The notes below the pieces were generated by a model. It worked only from the letters and a program-made list of their open reading frames with translations, did no database searches and was not told where the DNA came from. From positions 177,692,001 to 177,756,000 of the forward strand of contig OX597815.1 in assembly GCA_951406725.2 (NCBI GenBank): a stretch of 64,000 nucleotides of DNA, in the 5' to 3' direction. A program made the translations under genes and the position numbers. Source of the DNA: Octopus vulgaris. Its lineage: Eukaryota. This document shows, one piece after another, positions 6,094 to 51,110 of this stretch; within the stretch, counting starts at the first letter, position 1; every line of letters starts with the position of its first letter.

Positions 6094-6202
6094 CTTTTAG
6101 ATATATATATGTGTGTGTGTGTGTATGACTATATGTGAGTGTACGCGCAATGGAATCCACATGACAAAAATATTCTAATATAATACCTTTTATTTGTAAA
6201 TT

Positions 6203-7245: not shown

Positions 7246-7630
7246 TTCTACTGTAGGCACAAGGCCCGAAATTCTAGGGGAGGGGGCAGTCGATTAGATC
7301 GACCCCATTAGGCAACTGATACAAAACTTATCGACTCTGAAATGTAAAGTCGACCTCGACGTAAATTGAACTCAGAACGTAACGGCAGACGAAATGCCTA
7401 TTTCATTACCACCCACAAGGGGCTAAACGCAGAGGGGACAAACAAGCTCAGACAAACGGATTAAGCGGATTACATCGATCCCAGTGCGTAACTGGTACAT
7501 ATTTAATCGACCCCGAAAGGATGAAAGGCAAAGTCGACCTCGGCGGAATTTGAACTCAGAACGTAACGGCAGACGAAATACGGCTACGCATTTCGCCCGG
7601 CGTGCTAATCATTCTGCCAGCTTGCCGCCT
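7246..7630 (-). mobile_element. SINE family 1 dimer (full monomer with tail 1, then headless monomer with tail 2)
   Basis: Two copies of the core joined at GAAATA|GGCATTTCGTCTG (~7390-7405). Confidence 0.9.
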
Positions 7631-7780
7631 TTGATAATAAATATAATGCGATATAATACTATAATAAATACAAGGCCATATCTAAGTAAATGGGGGGAAT
7701 TATTGCTTAATGAAAATGAACTAAATAACTAATGAGTGGTCTTTAAATTATTTATTTCACTAAAATATTTATAGGACTAA

Positions 7781-8220
7781 ATAGAAATATTAATATTTCT
7801 AAGTCTCTCTAATATGGCAGTCCAGAAATATAGGGCGAATGCTGCCGTTGATTAGCTCCAGAGGTCATCGCCTCTTCGCGATAATTATAAATATCCAGTA
7901 CCGCTACCGTAGTCTCCTTTAGAGAGACTTAGAAATAATAATATTTCTATTTTTGAAAACCAGTGGATGTATTTCACTGAATTTAGGTAAATAATCCCTC
8001 GAACAGACGCTTAGTAGCGACGCCTGCTGGGTTCGGCTGCTCTGCATTGATAAGGGGCAAATACCCTGAAACTAGTCTGCAGATGCCTGACCAGCAATGG
8101 GAAGCGGCTGACCTCCCCTGTTCGAAGTTTATAATGGACACAGGCTCTCTAAAGAGGCGATGGCGTCTTGGAGCTAATGAACGACAGCATTCGTCCTATA
8201 TTTCTGGACTACCATATTAG
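7781..8220 (+). mobile_element. Small non-coding hammerhead-bearing element (retrozyme-like or Penelope-derived) with inverted 5' copy
   Basis: 7781-7812 is inverted to 7919-7950, and 7809-7876 is inverted to 8152-8220. Hammerhead-like motif at 8041-8083. Homologous to 50534-51042. Confidence 0.75.
8041..8083 (+). ncRNA. Minimal type I hammerhead ribozyme-like motif (core mutated)
   Basis: TCTGCA-tTGATaA-GGGG caaata CCCT-GAAA-CTAG-TC-TGCAGA: 6-bp helix I, core two transitions from CUGAUGA, 4-bp helix II, palindromic ACTAGT helix III, GUC site. Confidence 0.7.
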
Positions 8221-9530
8221 CTTGGTGATAACTATTAATATTTACAGGACTCTTCGAATGATTGAATGATTAATAAATTTATTGAACATGCTTGTCGGGT
8301 TTTTGCAAAATGCATGTTGAGAGTTTCCTTTCTTCCACATAATAACAATGAAGTTGAAATCTTCGTTATAATCTTCAACTCTTATTGAGAAACTTACAGT
8401 TTTACAAGTCATTGAGGTTTGTACAAAATCCTCAGCAATTTGCAGGCAGGCATCACACCATAATTATAACTGTTTATTGCCACAATATCCATAAATAAAC
8501 ATCTAGCTTATAAAAAATAAATTTAAAATCTGTTATCTAGAAACATATCGATATTCGATGAAGCATTTCAACAGAAATTAACACAAGAACGGTATACGCT
8601 TTGTGATATCGTTATAGATTTGTTATAGAATAGCAGATATTGACAAGTAAGATTGCTTCCTCTCGAAATAATAAGCCAACAAGTATTCTGATTATAGGTA
8701 TAATTTTCTAAATCAATTTGTCGAAAATCGTAGATGTTATTACCATTTAAAATAATGTAGTATTGAGTTTGTATTTACGCAAACAGGTAACTGTGAACTC
8801 ACCTTCGTTGTAGCTAAAGTAAAATTTTTATATATTTTTATCAATATACTCCATAAGTATTTGATTTAGAACGATTAGTTCGTGTGTTACAAGGTTGTGA
8901 TATCAGTAAATGAACTGCAAGTGTAAAAATATGTTTCCTGCCTGACAAGTACATCAGATATATTATCTGCGTCATGATCTGTTTCAATTTTCAGCTGTCC
9001 TCTTGTTGTCGTTTACAAAACCTCATTTTGTTTTTATATCGGTTTGCGATTAAAAGTCAAAGGGATTGATGATATGGCTGCTGATATCCTGTGAGAAGTT
9101 TGTTTATATTTTATCTAAATTTATGAAAATATTTGTTGCTGATTGTCAGCACATCTTATCTTTTTTCTAACATCTTGATGAAATGCGTTGATATTTGTCT
9201 GAAATTGATAAGAGTTGACACAATGGAAACGATCCTCTTCACATGGTTATAAAAGCCATTTCAAAAACGTTTCCTTCATTTAAAAACTGAATTTTCTCGC
9301 CATTTTGAAATGCAACAGATTTTTGAAAAATGTAAATTTCCAACATAATCCTTTGAAGAATAGCTTTGGGTTTTTTGTCACAGACACTTAAGTTCGGTTG
9401 TATTCGACAGTCTAGGTCAACCATTCCATGAAACGGTGTTTTGTTGTAGAATCAGAATCTCATTTATGCTTATAAAATTAATATTCCATAAATGACAATA
9501 TATAATTGAATATGCAGGCATATACATATA

Positions 9531-9591
<61 letters not shown>

Positions 9592-9592
<1 letters not shown>

Positions 9593-9812
9593 AAGCAACA
9601 AGGATATCCATAGGTAATGCAGTAGGATCGTTTCATGCGATTCCATTTAAATGAAATCGCATGAAACGATTGTACTACACTACCTTGGATATCCTTGTTG
9701 CTTATTTTGATTATAGTCACCCTATTTTGAATTATATGGATAATGCCATACTAAATTCTGGTGCCTTTAACTTAAGTACCATAGTCATCTGAATCTAAAT
9801 TTTACTGAAATT
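9592..9812 (+). mobile_element. Fold-back element, Penelope-terminus-like, within (TA)n
   Basis: 113-bp near-perfect palindrome at 9592-9704 centred on CATTTAAATG, plus a ~110-bp tail. Second copy at 10897-11051. Confidence 0.65.
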
Positions 9813-9823
9813 ATATATATATA

Positions 9824-10665
9824 TCAAAAGATGTTGAATGGATTAAGATCTCCCTGTACAGAGTAAGGGAATTTCATCTTACAAATCGCAAATTTCATCT
9901 TCCCAGTTGTGAAAAGGATCTGGGAGAAAATGTGTAGCTGTTCTGCTAGTGCTCCTTTGTATTTCTTCAGCAGGACTACTAGGAATCCCACAAGGCCTGT
10001 GGCTGAATTTGGTCTAATTTCATCAATGGCTGCTATTACATGTTTCCTCTAATTTGATGTTATCCATAACTGCCATCTTTTGTGTAGAGCTGTGGTGCCG
10101 AAGAATTCATCAAGCATGTCGATGAACCGTCTTATTCGAGCAGTGACCCTATCCTTTACCGTACAGAAGGAAATTCATTTGCAAACCTATAGACGGCTTT
10201 ACGATTTATCTTTCTATTTTTGACAGCCCTGGCTTCTTTGTCCACCGTCTCCGTTTCATAGGAGTTTTGACTTCATTTTCGATCTCCGGCAATATTTGTT
10301 TGAGACAGGGTCCTTTGCTATCCTTTACTGGCCCATTAAGACTGTTTGAGATTTTTTTATCATCGTCTCATTAGAATCCCTGAGGATTATATTTTTCTTT
10401 TGGTTTCACGTTCTCTCTGAAGCAAATATACTGCATATGCCAAGCATGATTATCCTAAAGTGCTGTAGCTTTATGTCAATATCTTTCATAGAGAAATTGG
10501 TAGGCCTCATTCGCAATATCCTTCGATTCAGCTTTGTGAAAATTCAGGCTGGAGAGGTACTGGGTGCTTCTTGTAGCTTGCATGCTTGCAGTTTTATGCG
10601 GACCGTACATTTTTAGTTCTATTACTAAGTTCCAATCCGAGAGAATCATTAGTGTCACTTTAACA
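9824..10665 (-). mobile_element. CR1/Jockey-group LINE ORF2 fragment (EN-RT linker and RT domain 0)
   Basis: Minus translation LSSLNFHKA and VIAAIDEIRPNSATGLVGFLVVLLKKYKGALAEQLHIFSQILFTTGK, matching the KA.GPDG..LK...LA.PL..LF..SL.TG motif. Stops and frameshifts present. Confidence 0.8.
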
Positions 10666-10685
10666 TTATATATATATAATGTGAC

Positions 10686-10886
10686 CTTGTGTGTACCGTT
10701 GGCGATTTTTTTTCCCTCTGTCTTCCCTTCTGTGGATCTTTCCTTTTCCTGTGTTTCCGACGAAGAGCTCCGCTCGAAACATTAAATCCTCCTTCTTTCC
10801 TTCTTTCTTGAGCGTCCAATAATACTAAATTTGTTCCACGTCCTCGCGTTGTTGTGTTTTTTTGTGCTTTCTTGTTTTGAGTAACT
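10686..10886 (+). mobile_element. Penelope-terminus-like short repeat with hammerhead-like motif
   Basis: TTT-CcGACGA-A-GAGC tcc GCTC-GAAAC-aTT-AAA at 10754-10786, flanked by (TA)n. Related copies at ~44402-44517 and ~48133-48247 on the minus strand. Confidence 0.65.
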
Positions 10887-10896
10887 ATATATATAT

Positions 10897-11049
10897 AATC
10901 AACAATGATATCCAGAGGTAATGCAGATATGCTTGTTGCTTATTTTGCTTATAATCACTTTATTTTAAATTATATGGATATTACCAAACTAAATTCTGGT
11001 GCCTTCAACTTAAGTACCATATTCATCTGAATCTAAATTTTACTGAACT

Positions 11050-11051
<2 letters not shown>
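10897..11051 (+). mobile_element. Second, centre-deleted copy of the 9592-9812 element
   Basis: Shares CTTGTTGCTTATTTTG..CTAAATTCTGGTGCCTT..AACTTAAGTACCATA..CATCTGAATCTAAATTTTACTGAA. The palindrome centre is missing. Confidence 0.85.
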
Positions 11052-11090
<39 letters not shown>

Positions 11091-11095
<5 letters not shown>

Positions 11096-11389
11096 ATAAA
11101 GGATCGTGGGTAAGGCGAAAACAATGCGAAGTGAATGCAAGGTAAATCACAAGGAAACTAATATGTGAATAAATATAGTCTTACCTTGCATTCAATATTT
11201 CGGGGTTAACACACGCTCACACACACACACACACACATCGGCAACAATCGTCACTTTTTGAAAATGGGATCATAACCTCGAAATATTGAATACAGGGTAA
11301 GTCTACATTAATTCACATATTTTCTTCTTGTGATTTACCTTGCATTTACTTTGCATTGTTTTGGCCTTTCCCACGAACTTTTATACAAT
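11091..11389. repeat. ~117-bp inverted repeat (fold-back element)
   Basis: Arms 11091-11208 and 11273-11389; the spacer contains (CA)n. Confidence 0.9.
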
Positions 11390-11577
11390 GTATTCTACAC
11401 AATGCTTCATTGTAATTATTCGACACACACACACATACATATATATATATATGTATGTATGTACATATATATATATATATGTATATATATATGTATATAT
11501 ATGTACGTACATATATACATGTGAATATATATACATACATATACACATACACAAACACATACACACATACATATATA

Positions 11578-11733
<156 letters not shown>

Positions 11734-12419
11734 TGCAATCACCAAAATACTTGTATTCGTATTTTTAACTTTATTTCCTTTGTGCGAATACGCATTATAT
11801 AAATCTACTGTGTGATCTTCCAGGCAGATATATTCCTCCATTATGTTTTAAATTTTTAATCGATATTTCCATGTACCTGACGTCGGAAATCAAACAGGTG
11901 TGTAATTAGGATATATGTATGTGCACGGGCGCAAGGCGTTAATCTCTTTGATTGGTAAATCAATCTATTTGTATTCCTGAACAAATATTTCTCTTCTCAC
12001 ACGAAACATAAGCAGCATCGTATTGCAGATTGAAATTACTGTTCCTAAAAGATGAGATTAATCTAACATTGACGAAATTATTCCGAATTTTATATGGACT
12101 TGTTCGACAGAAAAAATCCAGATGGATATTGTCAACCCTAGGGAAGCGCTGCCATCCCATAATTTCATTGCGATGAACCGCTGATTGGCGCTACCAATCA
12201 TTGTGCGATGACTGGAATATCATAAGTGAGGCAATCTCTGTTATCAGCTTTCAGCACACCACTCCAGTTTCTGTAACTGAACAGGAGATAACCGCTGCGA
12301 AATGCTTGCCTCTCACAGTCTGGATATTTGATGTTGCGAACTGGTTTTGGTGTATTTTCACGATTTGTCTACATGAGAATTTTTTCCATGACAAAACACA
12401 GTAAATGACGTGGAATCAT

Positions 12420-13435
12420 AATGATCTTCAAAAATGGTGAATGAAAGGCCTGTGGAAAATACGCAGAAACATAGCTATTTTCCATCATTGGAAATGTCGT
12501 GCTAGGAACCTTCTAAGTTAGCTCCAGACGATCGTGGAAATGATTCTTCCGGAATCTCAATGTGTATTCCGTGACTCTAGCAGCACAGTTGAGATGAGTT
12601 TCTGTGCCAGGCAACTCTGCAAGAGAAAAGCATGAAACGACGAAGACGCATTTGCCTTTTTCTTTCTATGACTTAGATAAGGCCTTCGATAGCGTTCCAG
12701 GAGCTGCTATGTGGTATATCCTTCATCGTTCGGATATCCTTATCACTTTCTCTCTCTGGTTCAAGCAATGCATGACAAGACATCTTGACATGTATTCCAA
12801 CAGAACAAGCTGTCAGAAGATTTTCCACTCTCGTCCGGACTTAAACAAGGATATATGTATACTATTTTCCTTATATCTTGCTGTAATGCTTCACGAACTT
12901 CTTGCAATCAATCTAGGAGTTAACATCATATATTGATATGATGGAGGACTTTTCAATCTTGGTTGATTGCGATCTGAAAATACATACACAGCACAACTCA
13001 GAACTTCAGTTTGCTGGTGAGAATGCTGCCTTCTGTCATTCAAAAGAACTCTAACTGTCTCTGAAAAACTTTGCTATGGTCTACCATCGAGTTCATTTCA
13101 GAGAAAAGGCTACGGAGTTGCCTTCTTCAAAGATAAAACAACCAATTAAAAGCAACACTGAAGGTCACTGGCCTTGAGACTAAATATTTTGGAAAACAAT
13201 CCTTAGACCGTATCAAGTTGCAGAATTCCATCACCATCTGCGACAAAAATTTCGAAGTTACAAGAAGAGAAAATAAAAAAATCAAACGATAGGAGACAAA
13301 AGTCAACCTCATCCTCCACCAATATTTCCACTCTTCTACACAAGAATTGGTCTTTAGAATCATCAATGCCATCACCATAAATGAAGCGCTCCGCAAGGAC
13401 ACTAAATTCTTGAATACGAGGAAAACAACGATGAT
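12420..13435 (+). mobile_element. RTE (BovB-like) LINE RT remnant
   Basis: ILPESQCVFR..STVEMSFCARQL, FYDLDKAFDSVP, LFSLYLAVML, YDGGLFNL..LRS, ELQFA. Frameshifted and internally deleted. Confidence 0.85.
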
Positions 13436-13633
13436 ATATGCATAAATATATGTGTGTTTGCGCATGTGTGTTTATGTGTGTGTATGTGTCAGTGTGTGTG
13501 TGTGTGAGCGTGAGAGTGAGAATGTGTGTGCAGGTGTCAAACGTATGCGTCAAGTAAATACATAGTTTGATAGCTGTGTAACCGGAAGGAATTTTATATA
13601 GATAAACACATAGACAGGCAAACATAAAACTAT

Positions 13634-14101
<468 letters not shown>

Positions 14102-14609
14102 AACATTATAGTATTCTAATATATTATCTGCCGTTTTCCTCTCCGATTGATTTATTACAAGTGCTCTTTGTGTTTCATATTTATAACATGTTTCATGCAT
14201 TATGGTTCTTCTTTACACAGTCTACTCCCATGAATAAAATATTGATTGTATGTGTCTTTGATTTTTGAAACAAGCATTTTCTATTAGTCTGTAATGTCTG
14301 CGTTCTAAAACAACAGCTTTAACAAATCCGATGTTAATAAGCGAAAGCGTATATTGTCTGAGAAAATAGAAATAAGAAAAAAGGTTATTGCAAATTTGTT
14401 TTAAAATTTAAATATTACATAATATTTAACTGCTTTATATAACACATGATTGAATTCCTCAATAGATAAAGAAGGATAAATGAAAGGAATGCATTCATGC
14501 TCGTATTCAAATGTGACCGTTTTCTTTTTAACCTCTACGATAATAACGAACGTTGCTGTGATGATTCTTAAATGTACGCCAATGGAATTAAAACTGTCAG
14601 CAAGAGTGA

Positions 14610-14766
14610 ATGTGCGCGTGTGGGTGTGTGCGCGTGTGAGTGTGTACACGTGTGTGTGTGTGTGTGTGCGTGTTTGTGTGTGCATGTGTATATGTATTTA
14701 TATAGATATATAAATACATACGCATACAGGTGAGTATATACATGTCTATATTATTGCATATATATG

Positions 14767-14810
<44 letters not shown>

Positions 14811-14812
14811 AT

Positions 14813-14845
<33 letters not shown>

Positions 14846-14942
14846 GTACATATATACACACACATATTCATAGATGCATATATATGAATACAGATGTGCG
14901 TGTATACATATATATGTATGTATATATATATATGTATATATC

Positions 14943-15021
<79 letters not shown>

Positions 15022-15193
15022 GTATATATATATATGTACATATATACATGTAGGTATACACACATATTTATAAATGCATATATATGAATACAGATGTGTG
15101 TGTCTGTAGGGTTATTTATAGTTATGTGTGTGAGTTATGTAGAACGGCCGTGCCCCAGTATGGCCACATGTCTCGAGCTGAAACTAGTAAAGA

Positions 15194-15245
<52 letters not shown>

Positions 15246-15330
15246 TAAATATACATATGCCTTTGGATATATATATGGATATAAAAAGAGATACCTATGT
15301 ATGTATGTATGTATGTATGTACGTATGTAT
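14610..15330. repeat. Compound (GT)n/(CA)n/(TA)n/(TATG)n region with an isolated LINE/SINE tail at ~15146-15197
   Basis: Simple repeats. GGCCGTGCCCCAGTATGGCCACATGTCTCGAGCTGAAACTAGTAAAG matches SINE tail B. Confidence 0.9.
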
Positions 15331-16719
15331 GTTCTGTGTATATGTGTGGGTGTAGGTGTGCGCGTGCACTATCTCTTTCACATTGTACGGAGACCAATTT
15401 TTTTGCTACATACGGTATATTCTGCGATAACAAATTCTTCCAGTGTGTTTGCAAATGTATAATACTAACGTTTAAAATATTATGGGATGTATGTGTTTGT
15501 TTTTTTGTTTTTTTCTGAAAATCGTTATCAAATAAAACAAAGAGGAATTTATTTCCCTGTGAGCGACTATGAGACATTGTGTATATAGTTACAAAAAGCG
15601 ATTACGGAGTGTTTCGTTATGACTATAACACAACTACCAGACTAAAATAATGTATGTAAATAGAAAAACCGTATTTGTCTTAGCCTACCTATGAATACAG
15701 TTTATGGCAGAAAAGTCAAAGCGCATGCCCTTTTTCAAATGAGATAATGTAGTCGAAAGAAATATGACTAGATTATACGTCGTAACAGATATCAAATGTA
15801 ATATATTATATTTGATTTGTTCATCTGAAACCTCTCTTTTTAAGCCTATTCCCATCTCTCGTTCTCTCGTTCGTTATGTGTGCGCAAGAGCTTGTGAACA
15901 GACACACATACACACAGAGAGATAGACCTAAGTGCACAATACTGACAACATGAATAAACGAATACTAACTGACAAATATCTCATATTCAATTCCGTATAT
16001 ATCAAAAGGAAAATGTATATCTATATGTATATATTACACACACACACACCCCACATACAACCACACACATAAATGTATTGTGTGTGTGTGTGTGTGTGTG
16101 TGTATGCGTGTGTCTTTATGTGTGTGTGCGTGTGTACTGCGTGTAAATTTTTTTATCACTCTTGTAAATCGTGTTTTTCTTGTTTTCGCAAGTAATTTTC
16201 TTTACCATATCAGTGTGAAAATGTCAGTCTCAAAGCACTTTGGCTGGGAAATAATTACTTTAACACAAATTGTGTATGATATGAGGTATATACTTGTATA
16301 AGTCACAATAAATACTCGTATATTTCAAACCTCCTAGCAACGTTGCTTTGTATCTAGCTGTCTGTGTTTATTTCCATTTGAAGATAGTTTCAAAATATCT
16401 ATAATCTTCTTTCGTTACTAATAAATACCTTATCCAAATCGGTAATGTGGTGGAAAAAAAAACATCCCAAGAGCTATTTACTTACGTCACCTTAGCTAAT
16501 ACCTCCAAAACTTGTACAGGTTGTTTCTTCCCATTTCTTCAGGATCGATAAATAATAATAATTTCATTACTTTGTTATAATCGACTGTAATCTTGTATTA
16601 AACATAACATTTTAGTGGTGCAATACCAAACGTATTATTTTATTTAGTTTCAAGTCAATTCCCATCAAGTTCAAAAGCCGGTTGTCCAGAATCAACAGGA
16701 GAGAAATATAGTTTCTCTT

Positions 16720-17095
16720 TTATCTCTTTTACTAGTTTCTGTTCGAGAGTTAGGGGTCATGTTTTGCTTCACTTTCGTTACTTGAAAAATTCCTTTGATA
16801 TGTGGAAATTGGTAAATGAAGGATTCTGATGTTGCTGCCCCCATATGCATTTCGTGTTGCTTATTGGGTTCATCTGGAAGTCTTTTGAAAGGACAAGATA
16901 CAGATTTGATTCGAAGACACATGCATCCACCCCATGTAGGCCTCTCAAGTGTTTTCAGAAGATATGGAAGAGCTGTGGGCTCTTAAATCCCAAGGTGTTG
17001 CAATATCTGATCCCCTATATTGATGGCGATGTTGGGATCTTGGAATTATACCGAGACGCCCAGTCTTGTTTTTTGTGTAATTTCCAATGCTAAAG
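16720..17095 (-). mobile_element. CR1-like LINE 3' end (ORF2 C-terminus and 3' tail)
   Basis: Minus translation TLGFKSPQLFHIF*KHLRGLHGVDACVFESNL..RLPDEPNKQHEMHMGAATSESFIYQ, resembling LFN.LP..LR..FK..LD..L..VPD.P. Ends CATGACC..TCTCGAACAGAAACTAGTAAAA. Confidence 0.7.
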
Positions 17096-19069
17096 TTCAG
17101 TAAAAGCCCTTGCAGGACTTTCTAGATGTATATCACTGCATTACAGTTATCTTTCTAAATAACAAATATATCTTGACTAATCAACTGTTATTATATACTT
17201 AAAATATACTTGTCTCTGAATAAAAATTGAAACATGCAAAAAGACTGAATCAAGTGGAACAGGGTTTGATAGCTACATATCCGTATTCGTATCAAAATGA
17301 TTAATGTTTGTTTATATTTTCACTAGACTAAAATCAGACTGAGCAAATGTACAAAAAGAATTATTCATTGCGATCACTTCCTACTGTAAATTCCTGCGCA
17401 GGTTCCTCGATGGACTTATATAAATTTCTGATTATCACAATTTCCCCTATATTTCCTCTGTATGTCACAATAGTGACTCTACAAAGTATAGAAGTTGTTT
17501 GGCCACAGGAAACGGATTGGTCGATGAAAATGTGCGGGGAGCTCTGAACTAGCAGCCATACATCTATTTGTACAAACAAGATAAACTCCGTATATGTACA
17601 TATGAGCAGGCGTATTTATGAATACTATGCATGTTTGAATGGATGTACTTAGACATATACACTATCAAACATGTGTCTGGTTGTATGAGTGGTCATACAC
17701 TTCTGTCACTAACAGATACCATTAACTCCTCTACTTTATTTCAATTGACCTGTCTTTATACATCCATTGACGTTTATGTCGTATAAGGCATACTTACATG
17801 GATACTTACATACATGTATATATGCATGTATGTATTTATGTATGTATGCATATTGCACATAATTTATTATATATATATGTAAATGTGTATGTGTGTGAAT
17901 GCTTGTTCATATATGTAATTTGTTTTCATTTAAGTAGTTTGCCTTCTATATTTAAAGGAAGTACTGTTTTTGGAACATCACAATTTTTCTGTGGAATCTA
18001 CTGCAAAGCAGCCTAGCCCATTAAATCCATTTCCATGAGACATTATTTACCCTTCTTCTTAAAATATACTATTAGTATTATGAGTGTGTTAACTTCTAAT
18101 AATACATGTTTTGTAGAAATATTTCCTTGTGGCAATGGATATGTGTACCACTAATACGTTTGCCGCAGGGTAACACTTAATACCATTGCTTAGTGCTCGA
18201 GGTACAGCTGTGACAACTTTATATAAACACATTGATCATCAGCGAAGATACTAGTAAATTGAACTGCCTCCCAGTCTAGGTGTAAATAACATGTTTGAAA
18301 ACAAAATTAAATAACGTGAAAATCCTAGTTGAAAATCGGCTCTTGTAATTTTAAATAAAATACGCAGATATCTAATTAAGATCTTTCAATTTTCAACACG
18401 CATTTCCAGGACAAGGAGCACGTGGTTAAGTACCCATTAACGATACAGAAGAATGGCCTTCAGCAAGTTTATAACTTTTCACTACCAGGATCTTGTTAAT
18501 TATCAATTAGTGAAGCGTGAAATTGAAAATTTTCAAATCTAATTTTAATTGAAATATTATGTTAAATGAGTTTAAGACAAACAGGGCCTTAGAATGTGCG
18601 ATGGAAACTGCGAAGAATGGGAAATTCTAAAGAACAAGAGACTGAGATGTTTTAAAGAACAAACTTTGTGATATCTGGTAAAATGCTGGTAAAAACAATG
18701 ATTCAAAGTTAATCAAAACACGTAATGTAACAGGGGTCCGTTTATGAATCTTACATTTTCAATATAATTGATAAGTGCTTTATAAAAGAAAACTGCCGGG
18801 TGATTGCTTCTCGTGTTTAAACTTAGATAAACTGCGCTGGTGTTTTCTTTTGTTATGAATTTGTGTATAATAGCGTCTTAGGTGTAATTTACAGCGCTGC
18901 CGCGTAGACGTTTAAAGGTATATAAGTGTCTAGCTTTGTCTACACAGTCTCTTTTATGACAGATCTTTAAATACATTTTAAGTACCCATCCACATATTAG
19001 ACAGAGGGCACTATTTGGTGAATATTTTGAGGGGTTTTTTTTTGTTGCTCCCATGTCGACCACACACAA

Positions 19070-19149
19070 TGACGTATATTTGTCCTCACGTAGTGGTTAA
19101 GAGCGCGGGCTACTAACCCCAAGATTCCGAGTTCGATTCCAAGAAGTGA

Positions 19150-19229
<80 letters not shown>

Positions 19230-19390
19230 TTAATAATAATAATAATATCATTGAAAAATACCTTAGGAATGAAAAATCAAGATCGAAAATTCCCCAACAC
19301 ACCTGATGAAGGCTGGAGGGTATGTCAGCCGAAACGTTGTGTTAACAACAAACAAGATAAGGATAAATATCCGCCAAATGTAAATAATGA
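19070..19390 (+). mobile_element. tRNA-headed element with (AAT)n spacer and hammerhead-bearing Penelope-like tail
   Basis: tRNA-like TAGTGGTTAAGAGCGCGGGCTACTAACCCCAAGATTCCGAGTTCGATTCC (19091-19140), (AAT)n at 19154-19247, hammerhead-like motif at 19299-19342. 19070-19088 is an inverted copy (15/19) of 19358-19376. Confidence 0.75.
19299..19342 (+). ncRNA. Minimal hammerhead-like motif with intact core
   Basis: ACAC-CTGATGA-A-GGCTG(10 nt)CAGCC-GAAAC-GTT-GTGT, with a palindromic AACGTT at helix III and one extra A after the core. Confidence 0.7.
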
Positions 19391-19444
19391 AGATGTAAAT
19401 AGATAAAAGAAATATATACGATTATTCAACATTGATTACCTTAT

Positions 19445-19447
<3 letters not shown>

Positions 19448-19526
<79 letters not shown>

Positions 19527-19579
19527 GTGTGTATGTATGTATATGTATATATATATATAAATGTGTGTGTATATGTAGG

Positions 19580-19633
<54 letters not shown>

Positions 19634-19672
19634 TGTATGTATGTATGTATGTATGTTTGTGTGTATGTATAC
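19448..19672. repeat. Compound (CT)n(AT)n(TATG)n microsatellite
   Basis: Visible simple repeats. Confidence 0.97.
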
Positions 19673-19819
19673 ATGCACACACGTTTATGTATTTGTTTTG
19701 CTAGATTCCTGATGTAAAATACTTTGTTGAAACCTCGTTATTTTTAAGGACGGTCATTATTTTTGTTTTTGCGAAAAACACGCACTCACTATATATTCGT
19801 TCTTCACTTAATGAGCCTT

Positions 19820-20914
19820 CCGTTGGGGAAACACTAGGACTTTGACTTTACCGTAGAACCGGCTCACAGCAGGAAGGTCAAGTTAAAAAGATATCGGATG
19901 CTGCATTTGTTGAGGACATAGTTCTCGTGCCAAATGCAGTGAGGTATGCAGAGGAGTTGATGCAGGAAGTGGAGACTGGACAAGAAGTCGAAGAATGCGA
20001 GGCTGTAAAAATGAATGAGAATACGACAAAGTATCTCGTAGAGAATATTAAGAAGCCAGAGAAGGTTATGAATGTAAGTGGGAAGCCACTAGCGTTGGTT
20101 GTGGACTTCGTGGGAGCCAAATTTGTGAACACAGAATGTGATATATGTGAGAGGAAGAGCAAAGCCTGCTCGGTATACCACTGATTTAAGGCGGCGAGCT
20201 GGCAGGAACGTTAGCACGTCGGGCGAAATGCTTAACGGTATTTCGTCTGCCGCTACGTTCTGAGTTCAAATTCCGCCGAGGTCGACTTTGCCTTTCATCT
20301 TTACCAGGTCGATAAATTAAGTACCAGTTACGCACTGGGGTTGATGTAATCGACTTAATACCTATGTATGTCCTTGTTTGTTCCCTCTGTGTTTAGCCCC
20401 TTGTGGGTAATATAGAAATACGTATACCACTGCTTGAGACCTGTATGGAAGTTGGGCCTTCGTAAAGACTTGAAGATCCATCTGTTCGTTGATGCAATGG
20501 AGTCTGTGCTGTTGTATGCGTCTGAGATTTGGACACTGACCAAGGGACTCACTCGGATGGTGGTTGTGTGCTACAAGACAATGCTGAGGACAGCTCTGAA
20601 CATTAATCAGTATACATGGAGGATGAAGAACTCAAAGCTGTACGAGAGCCTCCCAAAAGTTAGCTCGAAATTAATACAGATGAGACTGAGCTTAGCTGGG
20701 CATGCTCACAATTATTCCGAGTTGATACTGTACTCAGTGCTCTTGTAAGAGACCCTACACGGACACACTATAAGAGGTAGACCGAGTATGACATATGAGG
20801 ATACCCTAAGGACAGACATTAGTCTCTGGGATATACAGGACATGGCAGCGATGATGACAGACAAAACTCGCTGGATAGAACTCCTTCATGGATCTCGGGG
20901 ATTTTACACGACCT
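19820..20914 (+). mobile_element. RTE-clade LINE 3' half, interrupted by a SINE
   Basis: ISDAAFVEDIVLV (FADD-like), KIHLFVDAMESVLLYASEIWTLTK, MRLSLAGH, RGRPSMTYEDTL, MMTDKTRW. The reading frame resumes across the SINE. Confidence 0.88.
20189..20420 (+). mobile_element. SINE family 1 monomer, tail 1, with TSD
   Basis: GGCGGCGAGCTGGCAG head. TSD GTATACCACTG at 20173-20183 and 20422-20432. Confidence 0.93.
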
Positions 20915-21771
20915 AGATATATATTTATTTATATATTTATTCATTCATTTATTAATATGTGTATGTTATGTGTATATATGTATTTGTATGTATGTGTATG
21001 TATTTGTGTGTATGTGTGTATTATTATGCGCATAGTATCATTGCTTCAAAATTTTGAGTTCCGTTTCCAACATTCAGTATATTATTTTTATGATATATTT
21101 TCCGTATATTTTACCATTAGTTCATACAAAATTATAAATATTAATAATATACACTTCAAAGAACATAGCGTCTTTAGAAATATAGAAATGACAGTTTTTA
21201 CTGTTAATACCTTTATATTAATTTAAATTCCTTTGGAGAAAATATTTATATATTTTCTGTAAGTAGTAAGACTTCTACACAGTTTCGTATTTTGTTTTTT
21301 CTTCTAAACACATTGAAATTCATGCAGAATATAATCAAAATCGAATTACTAACTCTGTTCTATTGGTTTTTCTTTTAATTTTTGTTTTATTATGAAAATT
21401 CTATATTTTTAAAATTTATTACGCGTTAATATCTTTTGCAAATTCAATATTGTCTAAAATTAGTTGCGCAAAATATCAAATGCCCGTGATATTGACATTT
21501 CTTTTGGAAACACTATAGATTTTTTTAAATAATTTTAATGCTGATAAGATAGTATCTAACTATTATATACCAATCAATTTCAATTCTTTATGTTATTACT
21601 GCTGATATTGTTTGATATTATATTATCATAATATAGCACTATGAAAATCTACTCGTGCAGTATCATATCGTTTTATTCTTTCAGTAATTATTATGTTTAT
21701 AGATTTATTACTGTGGAGTGTTAGAGAAAATAAACAGTTTCCACACAAACACACATATATATAATTCTTTC

Positions 21772-22644
21772 TTTCTTTTTGGCCCACAGAGCGCTAAACA
21801 TAAAGGGGAGGAACAAGGATAGATAAAGGGATTAAATCGATTACATCGAAATCAGTGCGTAATCGGTACTTAATTTACCGGCTCTGAAAGGATGAAAGGC
21901 AAAGTCGACCTCGGCCGAATTTGAACTCAGAACTTAGCGACAGACGAAATACCTATTTCTTTATTACCCACAAAAGGCTAAACATAGAGGGGACAAACAA
22001 GGACAGACAAACGGATTAAGTCGATTACATCGATACCAGTGCGTAACCGGTACTTTATTTATCGACCCTGAAAGGATGAAAGGCAAAGTCGACCTCGGCG
22101 GAATTTGAACTCACAACGTAACGTCAGACAAAATACCGCTAAGCATTTCGCCCAGCGCGCTAACGTTTCTGCCAGCTCGCCACCCTTAAATATAAATTTC
22201 GTTACTATCTACAAGGGGCTAAACACAGAGAGGACAAACAAGGACAGATAAAGGAATTAAGTCGATTACATCGCCCCCATTGCGTAACTCGTACTTAATT
22301 TATCGGCTCCGAAAGAATGACAGGCAAAGTCGACCTCGGCTGAATTTGAACTCAGAACTTAGCGACGGACGAAATACCTATTTCTTTATTACCCACAAGG
22401 GGCTAAACATAGAGGGGACAAACATAGGTATTAAGTCGATTACATCGACCCCAGTGCGTAACTGGTGCTTAAATTATCGACCCCGAAAGGATGAAAGGCA
22501 AAGTCGACCTCGGCGGAATTTGAACTCGCAACGTTACGGCAGCCGAAATACCACTAAGCATTTCGCCCGACGTGCTAACGAATCTGCCAGCTCGCCGCTA
22601 GGCGTTTCGCCCAGCGCGCTAACTATTCTGCGAGCCCGCTGCCT
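21772..22644 (-). mobile_element. Two tandem SINE family 1 dimers plus a partial extra head
   Basis: Four cores: dimers ~21772-22185 and ~22198-22598, and a head fragment ~22601-22644. Confidence 0.92.
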
Positions 22645-22879
22645 ATATGCATATATATAATGCTACGTCAAAATAGATTTGGAAATCCATCCAACAGAAA
22701 CACGTGTCGGCTTGCAATTTCATGTGAATGTAATGGGAACTGTATGCAGTAATAATCAAACTTCTTTATGATGGCACGATTATAAATGTTCTATGTTGTA
22801 TGAAATCTAGTGAAGCGAATACAAATTATCTATCGACTGAAACAAATAAAAGACTATATATATGTTCTTGCATGTATGC

Positions 22880-23072
22880 GGTCGTAGGATCGCGGTTTCG
22901 ATTCCCGACGGCGTTGTGTGTGTTTATTGAGCGAAAACACCTAAAAAAAGCTCCATGACGCTCTGGCAGGGGATGGTGATCCCTGCTGTACTCTTTCACC
23001 ACTCTTTCTCAAATGGCGGTGCCCCAGCATGGCCACAGCTCGTGAGCTGAAACTAGAATCAATCAATCAATC
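22880..23072 (+). mobile_element. 5'-truncated SINE family 2 with tail B, (AATC)n end and 20-bp TSD
   Basis: Perfect TSD ATATGTTCTTGCATGTATGC at 22860-22879 and 23073-23092. Tail GGCGGTGCCCCAGCATGGCCACAGCTCGTGAGCTGAAACTAG. Confidence 0.93.
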
Positions 23073-23312
23073 ATATGTTCTTGCATGTATGCATGTGTGT
23101 ATAATTGTGTGTGTGTGTGTGTGTGTGTATGTCTAAAATTTGTAATGCATCCGGGATTTGGAGTAAAGTGGTGTAAACAAATATCATATGATTTTCTAGG
23201 ACAACAAACTTAGGAATTAGCTAAAATAAAGATCAATTCTTGATTATATCACAAGTGATATTGATGAGCGAATCTGCTTGATTGTTTCTCCTAATAAATA
23301 ATTTTCTCAATT

Positions 23313-23511
23313 AGCGGTGAGCTGCCAGAATCGTTTAGGACGCCGGGCGAAATGCTGATCGATATTTCGTCTGTCTTTACGTTCTGAGTTCAAATTCCGC
23401 CGAGATCGACTTTGCCTTTCATCTTTTTGTGGTCGATAAATTTTTGTGGTCGATCTAATCGACTGGCCCCCTACTCCTAAATTTTGGGCCTTATGCCTAC
23501 AATAGAAAAGA
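23313..23511 (+). mobile_element. SINE family 1 monomer, tail 2
   Basis: Head and core followed by CTGGCCCCCT..AATTTTGGGCCTTATGCCTACAATAGAAAAG. Confidence 0.88.
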
Positions 23512-25486
23512 ATGAGTTTCTATAATTTCGTTAGCAGCATATCCATCTGTTTATAATTAAATTTTAGCCCAACCTTATAGCAAGGTAATGCTTCAAGTGA
23601 AAATCGCTTTTATTCTCTCACAGAACCGATAAACCTTGCTTTCAGTGACGGAATAGTTTTGCTTTGATTTTTAAAAGAGCGATTATTTAATAATATTTTC
23701 TTTTTTTTTTTTTCTTTATTGAATACCAAACTGATTCCTTATTGCTGAATTGGCTTTGATAATATCCTTTCCCATAAAATCTATTCACATGGCTCTGTAC
23801 TGGGTACTGCTTTTTAATTGCTTACTCTTTACTTTGAAATATTTATTAAGAAAACAGAATATATATAGTAGGTAACTTTTATTTCCAATAAGTTATTTAA
23901 CGATAATACTTCAACATCATTTCCTATAGACTTTAAACTTGCTATTCCTACGCATATTTTAAAAATTGTCACATGGTCAACTCTATGAAATCATTAAGTC
24001 AATGTTATTCTAATGGTGACTATACTTTTTTAGCGTAGGAACGGTAGATCTGGAATCACGCCATGGAATAGTAAATCCCTCCCATAAGATGTTAGAATGT
24101 GATTTTTGAGGTTGTCTTATTTCTTTGAAAAACAATCACTTCTTTTCACAAGCGCTTAATGCATTATATAAACGCATGTATATAAGGGTATATGCATATA
24201 TTTATTATTCAGAGTGTTTACCTTTCTTCATTTCGATTTGCCATTCATGTGTTCCTGCATTTCAATCAGCGATAAAGAAACTTGATACATTATGCAAACG
24301 TATGAAGAAGCTGAATAGTTTGAAGCATGGAAATCTGCTGAATTAACAATGCATGGAGCGGCAGAATACAAACTGTAAATATTTCAAATGCATTCAGTTA
24401 TTTGACCCTTATTCCTGTCATTTGAGACAATGACAGGAGGATTCTGTTGGTCTGATCGTTCACGTACCTGTAGAACTCTATAATTTCAAGAGAAATCAAC
24501 CCCGAGAGGTTTGATGGAAGGTAGAAGAACAGATGACAGGTATTCATTATAACTGAGACAATTGTAAATAACTGGTCGTATACATTTAGCTGAATTTGAT
24601 TTCGTTCTCCCTTCTCAAACTGGCAATTGTGACTTTCGTGACACGGAAATTAAAACCACTTCCAATTTTCAAATTCCGATTTAATTTAAAGATGTTTACT
24701 TGAATTAATTTCCTTCTAAGTGTCCCCTCTTATATCAAATTCTGAGAATGACCAGCGGGAAAATATAGAAAAACCATCTAAATAAAATATTAATTTTCTG
24801 GAGAACGAAGATAGAACCGATAGTAAATCATAGCCTTTTCACTGATTAAAGCGAAAGGTGCAAAATTATATAAAAATAGTTTCATTACAATACAAAGAAA
24901 CATACACTGAAGATATTTCGGTATTTTTCGCGATCTTCAATGGCGTGATACAAAACGAGTCATAAACAGGCAAAATTTGAAAGTAATGCAATCCAGAAGT
25001 AATTTGAATCACGTGCTTGCAGCTATTTTGTTCTTGTATAATCATGAAGATGATAGGGTTTTTATTTAAGAAGGATTCATTCGTTATAAATATTTGCAAG
25101 TTACTCCTTTGCTTTTTGTGGAAATGAAGGAAATCTCTTCGTTCCTTATAGACAGGAAAGGAGTTGTTTTTAGCTGATGCTGTTAGCCGTTTTCGCAGCT
25201 TCGATATTTCCTTCGGCATTTCCTTTATTTCTAAAAATAGCAACTCACTGGGCTTTTCAGTGTTTATAAAAATGTTCTCATACTCTTTGGGTAGATTTGT
25301 AATAGGTTTCGTTCATCCAATTCAGGGTTTTCTTTAGATTGTTATTGTAATAAGAATATTTTGTCTTCAGTTGCTCAGTGCTATCATCAATATAAGAATT
25401 AATTAAGAATAAAAATTCTGTCAGTGTGTATAACTACGCAAAAAAAAAAAAAATTCTGCAAAGGAATTAACTATCGGATATACATA

Positions 25487-25694
25487 ACACCGCCTTTAGT
25501 CGAACAAATCGAACCCAGGACTCATTCTTTGTAAGCCCGGTACTTATTCTAACGGACTATTCTGCCGAACCGCTAAGTTACGGGGACGTAAACACACCAA
25601 CATCGGTTGTCAAGCGACGGGTGGGGGCAGACAAATTCAGACACACAAACGCACAAACACACACGCGCGCGCGCGGAAACACACGAATACACAC

Positions 25695-25743
<49 letters not shown>

Positions 25744-25900
25744 GGCGGGCTTCTTTCAGTTTCCGTCTACTAAATCCAATCACAAGGCGTTGGTCGGTCC
25801 GAGGCTATAGTAGAAGACACTTGCGCAAAGTGCCACGCAGTGGGACTGAACCCGGAATCATATAGTTGGTAAGCAAGCTACTTACCACGCACCCACTTCT
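25487..25900 (-). mobile_element. SINE family 3 (tRNA head, CORE-like CCTTGGGCAAGT, internal microsatellite)
   Basis: Colinear with 26128-26542. Confidence 0.88.
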
Positions 25901-26127
25901 AAATTTTTGTATATTTAGATGATGACACTAACAAAGCAACCAAGTATTCTTTGGTTCCCTAATTCATTTGAGAAAGAATAAAATATTAGAGTGGCGAGTG
26001 ACGATCTCCGACTCGTCCACTATTTTTACTCAACGATATTGTAACATTGTTTACCTAAAATTGGGAGGATTTCAAGTATTTTAGCCAGTCATATCAACAG
26101 GAGAAACTATTACAGCATTAACTCTTT

Positions 26128-26336
26128 TACACTTTTACTTGTTTCAGTCATTTGACTGCGGCCATGCTGGAGCACCGCCTTTAGTCGAATCAACTCGACC
26201 CCAGGATTTAATCTTTGTAAGCCTAGTACTTATACTATCGGGCTCTTTTCCCGAACCGCTAAGTTACAGGGACGTAAACACACCAGCATCGGTTGTCAAG
26301 CGATGTTGGGGGGACAAACACAGATACACAATATAT

Positions 26337-26375
<39 letters not shown>

Positions 26376-26542
26376 TATATACGACGGGCTTCTTTCAGTT
26401 TCCATCTACCAAATCCACTCACAAGGCTTTGGTCGGCCCGAGGCTATAGGAGAAGTCACTTCCCCAAGTTGCCACGCAGTGGGACTGAACCCGGAACCAT
26501 GTGGTTCGTAAGCAAGCTACGTGCCACACAGCCACTCCTGCG
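26128..26542 (-). mobile_element. SINE family 3, full length, tail C
   Basis: Reverse complement: GCGCAGGAGTGGCTGTGTGG..GGGTTCAGTCCC..internal (TA)n..AAAGGCGGTGCTCCAGCATGGCCGCAGTCAAATGACTGAAACAAGTAAAA. Confidence 0.92.
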
Positions 26543-27323
26543 CATTGTGAATATTTTGCCAATATCTGTATTGAATGACTCCTCAAGTATTTAGCAGAGA
26601 AGTGAGGATGTGAACACACGTTTGTAATGCCATGTACAGAGACATGGCACGCAATTGCGCACATAAACACGCACGCATACACGCACATGTATACAAATAC
26701 GTACATAAGCGTTAGCGCGCATGAGTACGGGCGCACATATATACAATATGTGCGCGCGTGAGTGTGTGTGATGGGATTCGTCAATGAAATTACAAGAATT
26801 GGTGAATTAGGGGTAAATAAGGACGTCACGTACTCAATATAGCCCAGCCCAACTGCTATATCTCTCCTCTTTGAATATTTTTTAAAAACACCGAACGATA
26901 CAGAAGTATTATCGGATATAACATGTTTGAGTATTTAAAACCTTCTTTAATGCGAACCAAAGAGAAGGAACTTTAAACTAGTGGAAACAATTATTTTACA
27001 TTGAATCAACCCTACCAAATATTAAATATAAATCTCAGAATTCTCACCATGTGTAGGTATATCGATAAATACAGGTGACATGTACTAAACTTACCCCTGA
27101 AATTAAAACCGTCGTATTTACTGCGCGATATGTATAGCACGGCAGGTAAAGGGCAATAATGCAGTCAATTTTTTGAGGAATAATTATGACTGCGTGTGTG
27201 TATTTGATCCATATAAAATACGAATTCAATCTCACCGGTCATCAACAGTATATAACAGAGGTGCACATTGGAATTTTGATCTCATATATTGGTTTTTAAG
27301 AATAATATCTTGTTAAATATCCA

Positions 27324-45709: not shown

Positions 45710-46987
45710 ATAAGCATTGGTTACTTGCTGTTTTATATTTAAATACGTTTTAGTTAGTTGCTGTTCTGTCGCAGAGACGCTGCTCGAATAGAAAGCGAAC
45801 TGAATACACTTGCAAGACTGGACCCTACAATTTTCTATAAGTTGACTCATTATATTTTTACTTGTATATGATTCTTGAATCTGTTGATATTTTGCTGTCA
45901 TTCTTTTCCAGTGTGTCTTGCCTGTATACCCACTATATTGCACGTAAAATTCTTTACATACATATTAAATTATATACTGTTCAAATTGTTTCAATCTTGA
46001 ATGGTGATCACACTCTGAAATGTATATCACGACCTTATAAATAGCTACATACTTTACTCTGTAGTCGGATGAACTTACTAAATTTTGCATTTGTCACTCT
46101 GTGTGTGTGTTTGTGTGTGTGTGTGCGTGCGATTTTGCTTCTCATCTAATTTTCATGGTTGTTTTATTTTCAAAATATTTCGCTTTATTATTATTATTAT
46201 CATTATTATTATTTATCAGTAGTTTTATTTTTATAGCGTGCTTTCACTTCACTACCGAGCGCAGCTCTGTGTGCCTTGGGTATGTGCTGTGATTTGTTGT
46301 GATGCTCTGATGGTTATTGTATGGAAAGTGTTCTGCGTAGGATGTGTGCAGTGCCTAGTAGTGCAATTTTCTGTATGTTATATGTGTTTGTAAGTCCTGG
46401 TGTTTTTGTTATGTATTTGTCTGAATATTTTTTTATCATGCCTAATGCACCTATTATGATAGGAATTGTTTCTGTTTTCAGGTTCCACATTCTAGTTATC
46501 TCTATTTCCAGGTCTTTGTATTTTGAGAGTTTCTCCATTTCTTTTAGAGACACGTTGTCATCTGCCGGTATTGATACATCAATTAGAAAGCATTTTTTTC
46601 TTCATGATCTCTGACAACTATATCTGGTCTGTTGGCCTTAATTTCTCTATCTGTGTGTATCGGCATATCCCAGAGTATGGTTGCTTTCTCGTTTTCTGTG
46701 ACCTTTTCTGGTGTGTGCCTATACCATCTTTCTTCTGTTGTTATTCCATAATGTTGGCATAGCTTCCAATGTATGTAGGTTCCAACTCTGTCATGTCTGT
46801 GAATATATTCCTTCTTAGCCAGGACTGGGCAGCTAGAGATAATATGATTTATTGTTTCTTGTCCATCTCCACATATTCTGCAGTTACTTGTAATATTTCT
46901 TTTCATTACATGTTTTTGGTAATTTCTGGTGGGGAGGCTTTGGTCTTGTGCTGCAATTAAAAATCCCTCTGTTTCTGCTTTGAGTCC

Positions 46988-47051
<64 letters not shown>

Positions 47052-48025
47052 TTGTAATTGTATTCCTTTAACTTTGTAAGGATGTTGGTGAACATGTCGG
47101 GATTATCTCGAACGAAAGCTACTGCTTTAATTTATTCACTATTTGCGTGTGTTTGCCTGTGTTGGGCGTGGGGTATGTGCATGCGCACGTGTGTGTGTTT
47201 TTGTGGGCGGTGTTTGTGGGGAGTGCGTGTTTGCGTGTGTGCGTGTATATGTCTGTGTGTGTGCGTGTGTGTATTCTGTTACTCGTATCTAATGGTTGTA
47301 TATCTATTTTAGTTTCTGAATTCCAAATTCATGAGATTTCTAGTGCACTTATTTCTCACAATTATCTTATAATGTCTCTAGTCTTTTCTTCTCTTGTTTC
47401 GGATTTGACTCAATAAGATAGGTTCGTTCAGCAAAGTTATATCGAAAGTAGCTGCTGATGTTTTTCGAGAGACCGAATGTAAAAATAAGGTAGAATCGTA
47501 AGTGGGTTGGTTCAACATATATGTCTCTTACCTGGTGTTTTCTTTTCTTTTGTTGTTATCAACATATCTAAGGATGGTTGTTAACCCCAGGGAATAGAAT
47601 GCGAGGTTTATATTCGTGAAGAGATTTTGTTATACGTTGAATCGAAGAATGTTTTTTATTATGTGACATGAAATAGTTGGATTTCTCTGCAATTTCCGAT
47701 TCAAATAACATCTGAATTCATTTAGAGTGTTTTTGCAGGATAGTTCATACACCACCAGTTCAAGCTGCCTTGTGATTAAGTACTTGTAGGTTAGAGCAAC
47801 CTACATGGCAGTGTTTCTACTTTCGTTAGAAAGTCGTACCAACAAACATAGGTTAGTTGCTTTCAAAATATTATTAAAGCCATGCACAAGAGACTTTCCT
47901 ACAAATACTTTCTAGTATCACATAATAATCCATTATATTATTGCATTGAATAGTTCTATATAGATTTACTACATCAAATGTTGAAATTGAGCTATTTTTG
48001 CTTAGTGAATTAGGAAGACGTCTAC
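45710..48025 (-). mobile_element. Decayed Penelope-like element (RT plus GIY-YIG, Neptune-like), split by a Dong insertion and CA repeats
   Basis: In order on the minus strand: [23 protein letters not shown] (RT motif A), NTAM*VALTYKYL..LE (GTAMG..APTYA), PSLDMLI (LPFLD), RYNFAERTYLIES..RLETL (thumb), DNPDMF, then after the insert QYSGYTGK..KRMTAKYQQI..SQLIENC..FAFY (GIY-YIG). Confidence 0.75.
46185..47051 (-). mobile_element. 5'-truncated R4/Dong-clade non-LTR retrotransposon within (TAA)n
   Basis: ETEGFLIAAQDQ, CRICGDGQETINHIISSC (CCHC), RHD, ILWD, NRPDIV, LIDVSIP, EKLSKYKDL, IIIGALG, QKIALLGTAHILRRTL (restriction-like endonuclease). One frameshift in an A run near 46595. (TAA)n at both ends; body ~46217-46987. 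Confidence 0.95.
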
Positions 48026-50480: not shown

Positions 50481-50533
<53 letters not shown>

Positions 50534-50536
<3 letters not shown>

Positions 50537-51041
50537 CCATCTAGAAATAGCAGTAACACTCTTCCCATTCTTTGGACGGCCACATTAAGTTGGCAACAAA
50601 CCATCACTGTATCCTCCTTCTACTGCATAGCTCTCTCTCTCTCTCCCTCTCTCTCTGAGAGATATAGAAATGCAATATTTCTAATTTTGTAGATCAGTGA
50701 ACTTATTTCATTTAAAATTCTGTAAGTTTTCAGCAGTGATTTAGCACCGACAGCTAGCAATGCCAAGCTACTCCATAGTGATGAAGAGCAATTACCCTGA
50801 AACTAGTCTCTAGGAACTAGGTTTGTTGGGTGGAGATGTTTATCTCCCTTGTTTGAAAGCTTAAGAACACAGAACGCTTGTGTCACGTAGCCAACTAGAA
50901 CCGGTGTTTCCTGGGGTTAAATAGCAGTGCAATTCTTCCCTTTCATGAGATTGTCACATTAAGTTGGCAACAAGCCATCACTTTAACGTGCTGATACTGC
51001 ATAACTCTCTCTGAGAGATTTAGAAATGCAATATTTCTAAT

Positions 51042-51042
<1 letters not shown>
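50534..51042 (+). mobile_element. Retrozyme-like ~1.4-mer tandem unit (period ~355 nt) with hammerhead-like motif
   Basis: Direct repeats at 50534-50686 and 50888-51042. gTGATGA-AGAG caatta CCCT-GAAA-CTAG-TC at 50778-50808. (TA)n on both flanks. Confidence 0.75.

Positions 51043-51110
<68 letters not shown>

Follow-up and report, generated by a model that had tools for sequence, protein, structure and literature searches.

The element described here occupies positions 50534-51042 of a 64-kb stretch of DNA, which was analyzed as a whole and is referred to as the window. It consists of a short unit, present as one partial and one full copy in direct orientation. A diverged sister of this unit is located at 7779-8220. 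The features of the two loci are listed below.

50500-50533, no strand: left flank, a (TA)n tract read from the sequence, likely part of the target site
50534-50686, plus strand: 5'-truncated partial unit (0.43 unit) ending in the tail, with a private 20-nt deletion and an 18-nt (CT)n gain, based on alignment and contigs
50657-50686, plus strand: internal tail, made up of GAGAGA, a hairpin (arms 50665-50671 and 50677-50683), and 3 nt
50687-51042, plus strand: one full unit of 356 nt, GC 39%, no ORF
50758-50825, plus strand: decayed type I hammerhead in which stem I is extended and bulged; the core is 50778-50808 and the cut is predicted after 50808
51013-51042, plus strand: terminal tail, at which the insertion ends on the 3' side; the arms of its hairpin are 51021-51027 and 51033-51039; putative reverse-transcription start
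51043-51107, no strand: right flank, (TA)n followed by a (TG)n tract, read from the sequence
7779-7876, minus strand: inverted, 5'-truncated sister copy with its tail (7779-7812, 30-34 nt) at the outer end
7919-8220, plus strand: sister subfamily, a single unit of 298 nt with 4 nt of overlap, GC 44%
8028-8095, plus strand: sister type I hammerhead with 15 of 15 pairs and a U3-A8 core pair, predicted cut after 8077

A preliminary description of this DNA had reported that 50534-50686 is repeated at 50888-51042, and the repeat is recovered by BLASTN (50545-50686 against 50919-51042, E 2e-22). In a global alignment of 50530-50690 with 50884-51046, which includes a few flank columns, 117 of 143 aligned columns are identical. 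The offset between the copies shifts from 354 nt at the start to 374 nt in the middle and 356 nt at the end because 20 nt are missing from the first copy (50534-50686), which has also acquired 18 nt of (CT)n; those 20 nt are present in contigs of the family. The suggested ∼1.4-mer with a period of ∼355 nt agrees with a full unit of 356 nt and a total length of 509 bases, or 1.43 units. The (TA)n tracts said to lie on both flanks are found around 50534-51042 but not around the sister, which sits in AT-rich unique DNA.

The two loci are clearly homologous. The local alignment score of 50534-51042 against 7919-8220 is 99.6, as compared to a mean of 20.4 and a maximum of 30.6 for 300 dinucleotide shuffles and to 39.8 for the best unrelated segment of the window. 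An nhmmer comparison of the element with the sister gave E 4e-11 over 287 nt of the unit and found no further copies in the 64-kb window besides these two loci. The four shared motifs that had been named are present at both loci in the order given. Three of them occur nowhere else in the window, and the hairpin is found additionally at 7783 and 51022, inside the same two elements. The shared GCAA.TACCCT match is real but consists partly of minority letters, as other copies mostly carry G at 50793 and T at 50796 (64-85% of depth in three DNA runs). The division into two diverged subfamilies is supported.

The inverted copy at 7779-7876 was missing from the preliminary description. It is identical to 8152-8220 at 62 of 68 positions and may extend to about 7889. 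The forward sister copy (7919-8220) begins with the tail (7923-7952) and stops just before it. The sister is also head-to-tail because the inverted copy runs on through the hairpin beyond the match to 8152-8220; the head-to-tail continuity proposed for both subfamilies thus stands, with the inverted copy as the evidence for the sister. The inverted and forward copies are separated by ∼29 nt (7890-7918) that are not clearly derived from the unit. A possible target-site duplication of 20-21 nt surrounds the sister (7759-7778 and 8231-8251, 18 of 21 columns), with a score that was reached by 0.7% of 3,000 random 50-mers from the window. The right half of this putative duplication is displaced by 10 unexplained nt (8221-8230).

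The repeat had also been said to enclose a hammerhead-like motif. This holds for the family, which keeps the fold, but the copy at 50534-51042 is itself decayed, with a G at core position 3 and 10 of 15 pairs intact. The type I hammerhead core CUGANGA...GAAA...UH with helices I-III, helix I being open, is found in the sister, as a U3-A8 variant, and in the most-read letters of the family; the element departs from it at G3. The C at 50778 accounts for 91-93% of depth in three DNA runs and restores C3-G8. With the most-read letters, all five broken pairs are mended, giving 15 of 15, as are all three broken pairs among the seven of distal stem I. Two details stand against this. In run X11, G reaches only 37% of depth at 50812 and 32% at 50816 (gap variants), two letters that restore pairs, and the loose-end consensus of run X2 reads A at 50813, a letter with which one pair of stem I would open.

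In the sister hammerhead, helix II has 4 bp and a loop of 6 nt, the inner part of helix I has 6 bp, and helix III is a single pair around a palindromic loop. Beyond the inner 6 bp, helix I continues through a 3-nt bulge facing one U into another 3 bp. In context, the hammerhead constraint raises the folding energy of the sister by 1.3 kcal/mol, and a 71-nt stretch forms stems I and II without it (z -1.65), whereas the corresponding stretch of the element does not fold as a hammerhead (z +0.59). The one-pair helix III with its palindromic loop suggests that cutting may need a dimer. In a related ribozyme, the change C3G abolished cutting, as described in a passage of PMC11167929; given the G at core position 3, the hammerhead of the element is predicted to be dead. 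The element would therefore be a fossil copy that no longer cuts.

The covariation check proposed for helices I and II came out in favor of a conserved structure. Between the family majority and the sister, for which the letters are those of one copy and not of a family majority, six of the 15 pairs are changed on both sides, two on one side, and none is broken, a comparison that covers few independent lineages. The six double-changed pairs are core pair 3-8, four in helix I, and one in helix II. The claim that structure is conserved while the sequence changes is borne out by these double-sided changes. When four natural copies were compared (the element, the sister, and two from the metagenome match L001, described below), eight cells were double-changed; none of 500 shuffles scored as high, and slid controls gave 0-3. 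It should be noted that this four-row count is not a probability.

Across the whole window, Rfam gave no match at the gathering score. The Rfam hammerhead models matched neither copy even at E up to 10 and also missed both similar motifs of L001; at this threshold, only chance-level matches were obtained around both copies and in L001. Folding of the circular monomer (60 shuffles each), which had been suggested as a check, gave a modestly stable fold for the sister (z -2.4, 62% paired); the element (z -0.03 and +0.43) folds no better than its shuffles. A single hammerhead is present at each locus, and no dimers or longer arrays were seen, although the contigs are short. The two remaining shared motifs take part in pairing as well, as a small hairpin after the tail (50694-50712 and 7960-7980) and as a long-range stem that closes the hammerhead domain (50729-50736 with 50849-50857, and 7999-8006 with 8118-8125). 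Both form in the folds of the sister; in the element they were judged by eye.

A metagenome scan returned 0 matches with a first pattern and one match, L001, with a second. L001 resembles the unit at the hammerhead only (nhmmer E 0.002-0.35 over 39-60 nt). It contains a separate tandem unit of ∼620 nt (101-506 and 720-1109, with identity at 296 of 377 aligned letters). Each of these copies has a comparable type I hammerhead, the cores lying near 150-180 and 767-798. L001 is retrozyme-like while being unrelated outside the ribozyme.

Both tailed insertion ends, 51042 of the element and that of the inverted sister copy, stop 3 nt past the hairpin, a rule that covers two insertions with 1-2 nt of ambiguity in their AT-rich targets. 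The forward sister copy ends at 8220, immediately before the hairpin segment, and the 30-34-nt tail is found at one end only. The 5' ends of the element and sister copies differ in place. The terminal hairpin is far more stable than expected (z -6.6; none of 200 shuffles was equally stable). The suggestion that a hairpin at the insertion end could be a signal for reverse transcriptase gains support here, as the hairpin marks two of two tailed ends and fits the reverse-transcription start described for a Penelope-like element in a passage of PMC11167929. The hairpin stem is invariant and consequently shows no covariation; it could act at the DNA level or at the RNA level.

Penelope-like elements are described, in passages of Craig et al. 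2021 (PMC8557442) and of PMC8969392, as being truncated at the 5' end, forming partial tandems, and carrying an inverted truncated copy as well as a tail of 30-40 bp at one end only; (TA)n targets are mentioned for some of their clades (PMC8557442). According to the sections of Frangieh et al. 2024 (PMC11167929) that concern insertion in vitro, the tail lies between two internal reverse-transcription starts at a stem-loop downstream of the hammerhead, reverse transcription follows a nick in AT-rich DNA, and hammerhead cutting was dispensable for insertion in the one Penelope-like element tested. The two loci studied here, and only these two, display a partial tandem (50534-51042) and an inverted 5'-truncated copy with a one-sided tail (7779-8220). 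The target is (TA)n on both sides of the element and AT-rich at the sister, a weak indication, as (TA)n is abundant in the window. Judged from the sequence, the ends of the element and the sister match the published Penelope-like signature in the partial tandem, the inverted copy, the one-sided tail, and the (TA)n target.

Assembled contigs of four of 24 listed sequencing runs were aligned to 50520-51058; three of these were DNA runs, with organism labels A, B, and F. All three gave numerous contigs at 80% likeness or more (1,238, 977, and 1,298, respectively). Since the contigs are mostly less than 95% alike, they represent many diverged copies rather than a single locus, and the 356-nt unit belongs to a large multi-copy non-coding repeat family. 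Summed depth increases toward the 3' end, from 3,752-6,569 at 50702 to 9,217-13,091 at 50776, 12,747-26,574 at 50866, and 130,449-145,148 at 50948. This increase fits 5' truncation, though weakly, as depth is not copy number and is also affected by the mutations of this copy. Run X18, guessed to be RNA and possibly containing DNA, gave 105 aligned contigs, which are given no weight here, as contigs cannot reveal expression, strand, ends, or circles. Small shares of words were present under organism labels C, D, E, and G and are likewise given no weight.

The unit contains no ORF, the longest Met-started frames being 23 codons in the element and 45 in the sister. Beyond the tail, the two loci share homologous sequence, and the hammerhead follows after ∼120 nt. 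Three of the listed contigs extend from within the hairpin across the hammerhead; none of those listed spans the tail junction with 31 letters on each side, as 50624-50671 and 51030-51058 were left out of the alignment. Because the homologous post-tail sequence reaches the hammerhead and lacks an ORF, the unit is taken to be complete at 356 nt and non-autonomous. Among the 150 of 183 complex window ORFs that were scanned, none matched GIY-YIG or a Penelope RT, and no autonomous partner was found within the window. For the octopus O. vulgaris, a list of 31 recently active Penelope-like families is given in PMC13282606, in the part that deals with these families, which makes a partner plausible if the host is an octopus. 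The host is an animal whose genome is rich in microsatellites and, judging by its repeats, may be an octopus.

Two other readings of the unit were considered and rejected. A coding reading fails for want of a long Met-started frame and of any RT or GIY-YIG match, and an autonomous Penelope-like element would require an ORF with RT and GIY-YIG, which is found neither in the unit nor in the 150 of 183 window ORFs.

Metazoan non-LTR retrozymes are described by Cervera and de la Pena 2020 (PMC7229834), in the passages drawn on here, as 150-450 bp in animals with GC below 50%, for example, 350-390 bp in mussel, 330/350 bp in axolotl, and 220-240 bp in coral. The present units fall within this range (356 and 298 nt, GC 39-44%, no ORF). 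Further likenesses to that account are a short ORF-less unit arranged head-to-tail with many genomic copies, a type I hammerhead with an extended stem I and a weak palindromic helix III, and two size classes, here 298 and 356 nt. Unlike the metazoan retrozymes, only copies of 1.0 and 1.43 units and no arrays were seen, and the family is known here from DNA alone. On the features that a sequence allows one to test, the unit classifies as a metazoan non-LTR retrozyme.

Penelope-like elements are another close comparison. As in passages of PMC8557442 and PMC11167929, a hammerhead lies upstream of the tail, a stem-loop at the start site, and AT-rich or (TA)n DNA at the target; unlike in Penelope-like elements, the unit has no RT/GIY-YIG ORF. 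Their hammerheads are usually minimal according to a passage of PMC6155905, whereas the unit has an extended, bulged stem I. Among described elements, the non-autonomous Chlamys elements of algae, such as MRC1, offer the parallel without an ORF.

Taken together, we consider it probable that 50534-51042 is an old, decayed insertion of an ORF-less hammerhead unit, likely copied in trans by Penelope-like enzymes, which is to say a non-LTR retrozyme. The element is likely an animal retrozyme using borrowed enzymes, with cleavage, expression, circles, and the partner all being predictions. Where the preliminary description had thought of a replicating non-coding RNA, the evidence points to a non-autonomous retroelement that belongs to a described class and integrates as DNA, and not to RNA self-replication.

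A possible course of events is as follows. Intact copies would be transcribed head-to-tail, and the hammerhead would cut once per unit. The monomers would then probably circularize; this is the least certain step, with about an even chance against an uncut multimeric RNA as the template, and that estimate leans on the circles reported for mussel, coral, and axolotl retrozymes in a passage of PMC7229834. A Penelope-like protein would nick AT-rich or (TA)n DNA, and reverse transcription would begin internally, on one side of the tail or the other, so that some ends include the tail and others lack it. Copying would pass the unit junction and stop at a variable point, leaving a 1.43-mer or, as in the sister, an inverted partial copy. 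The element would subsequently have decayed neutrally and lost the ability to cut.

The alternative that fares best, though unlikely, is that the repeat is no element in its own right but pseudo-LTR debris from an autonomous Penelope-like element, with two of its 3' ends, each 5'-truncated, lying next to each other. Autonomous elements do have the same end signature and a hammerhead, and depth is 22-39x higher at 50948 than at 50702, which could mean an abundant partner with a common 3' end, depth again not being copy number. However, random truncation would not give the same post-tail sequence at two diverged loci and in other contigs, and the tail is followed by the hammerhead after ∼120 nt with no ORF between them. 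The frequent loose ends among those listed, with 518 rows left out, are variants of the unit or AT-rich flank and not a common foreign body.

Slightly less probable still is a SINE-like hammerhead element moved by an ordinary LINE, such as a microsatellite-targeting RLE or an RTE. LINE remnants are present in the window (zf-RVT match at 46586-47131), and LINEs are left open as partners in a passage of PMC7229834. Against this, the unit lacks a poly(A) or repeat tail, and the optional 30-34-nt tail and the inverted truncated copy are described as Penelope-specific in passages of PMC8557442 and PMC11167929.

That one old copy was duplicated locally in tandem, aided by the flanking microsatellites, is very improbable. 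Ten departures of the second repeat copy from the family are listed, read from 40 of 133 difference rows. At seven of these the first copy has the family letter, at one a third letter, and at two the letter of the second copy. Because the first copy keeps the family letter at seven of the ten, the two copies of the repeat each decayed on their own, which speaks against a local duplication at a late date. The two common departures and the unstable microsatellite flanks are what a duplication can draw on; however, the shared departure at 50973 is polymorphic in the family, and that at 50967 is a minority letter with 19-26% of depth. A repeat unique to this locus, the outcome that the preliminary description had set against its own reading, is further contradicted by the junction from tail to next unit, which recurs at the sister locus and among other contigs. 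That the repeat was duplicated soon after insertion keeps a small probability.

A host-functional ncRNA that had been co-opted, or a viroid-like RNA replicon that left a footprint in DNA, would account for the structure conserved between subfamilies but is equally improbable. Of the 40 listed places, the element has a letter other than the most-read one at more than 30, the catalytic core included, which indicates neutral decay. What is conserved is shared by the family majorities, as expected under selection on mobility, and nothing points to RNA-to-RNA replication.

Returning to a retrozyme copied by Penelope-like enzymes, a more specific reading is that the family is an undescribed, probably cephalopod, retrozyme lineage with full Penelope-specific ends, and that these ends come from in-trans Penelope retrotransposition around a hammerhead-made circle and not from local amplification. 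We advance this reading tentatively, with the balance tilted slightly against it. If true, the anatomy of the ends would be direct evidence for in-trans retrotransposition and would map the start of reverse transcription to a hairpin that is invariant across subfamilies. The retrozyme class is already known, and its Penelope link is an existing proposal based on co-occurrence and on similarity of sequence. The present addition, on a hammerhead unit without an ORF, consists of fixed 3' ends at the hairpin, an optional tail, and an inverted truncated copy. Should these features hold genome-wide, a cis signal for mobilization would be named, and the retrozyme-Penelope partnership would be testable in an existing in vitro system.

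The same partner is proposed by Li, Clavereau, and Pollet 2026 (bioRxiv 10.64898/2026.07.22.740005), and monomers are common in their families, which is a further likeness. Their evidence, as set out there, is co-occurrence and pLTR homology, mainly in vertebrates, whereas ours is insertion anatomy. Two consecutive complete hammerheads, by which an element is called active in that account, are not found at 50534-51042. In term searches, the words mollusc, tail, and hairpin gave no mention in the main text of that preprint, which is likewise silent on inverted copies, the terms tail, inverted, truncat, octopus, and squid were absent from the main text of PMC7229834, and hammerhead, ribozyme, and retrozyme were absent from the main text of the O. 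vulgaris repeat annotation (PMC13282606). Literature searches turned up neither a cephalopod retrozyme nor an account of this family, which may already be present in Repbase, Dfam, or the supplements of papers.

Other repeats are present in the window. The 3' part of a non-LTR retrotransposon lies at 46303-47131 on the minus strand (Pfam zf-RVT, E 4.6e-6) and adjoins an (ATT)n-type tract; we take it to resemble R4/Dong elements. The ORF list includes other repeat debris at 7427-7729 and 22223-22657, 19846-20745, 12598-12933, and 4407-4727. By eye, the remaining debris comprises a shared interspersed repeat and RTE-like and mariner-like remnants, with no Pfam match. Near the 3' end of the unit (50988-51023, run X11), organism F exceeds A and B in summed depth by ∼4-7x. 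The same run contains 35 contigs with a common diverged variant before 50995, which is possibly a third, more amplified subfamily.
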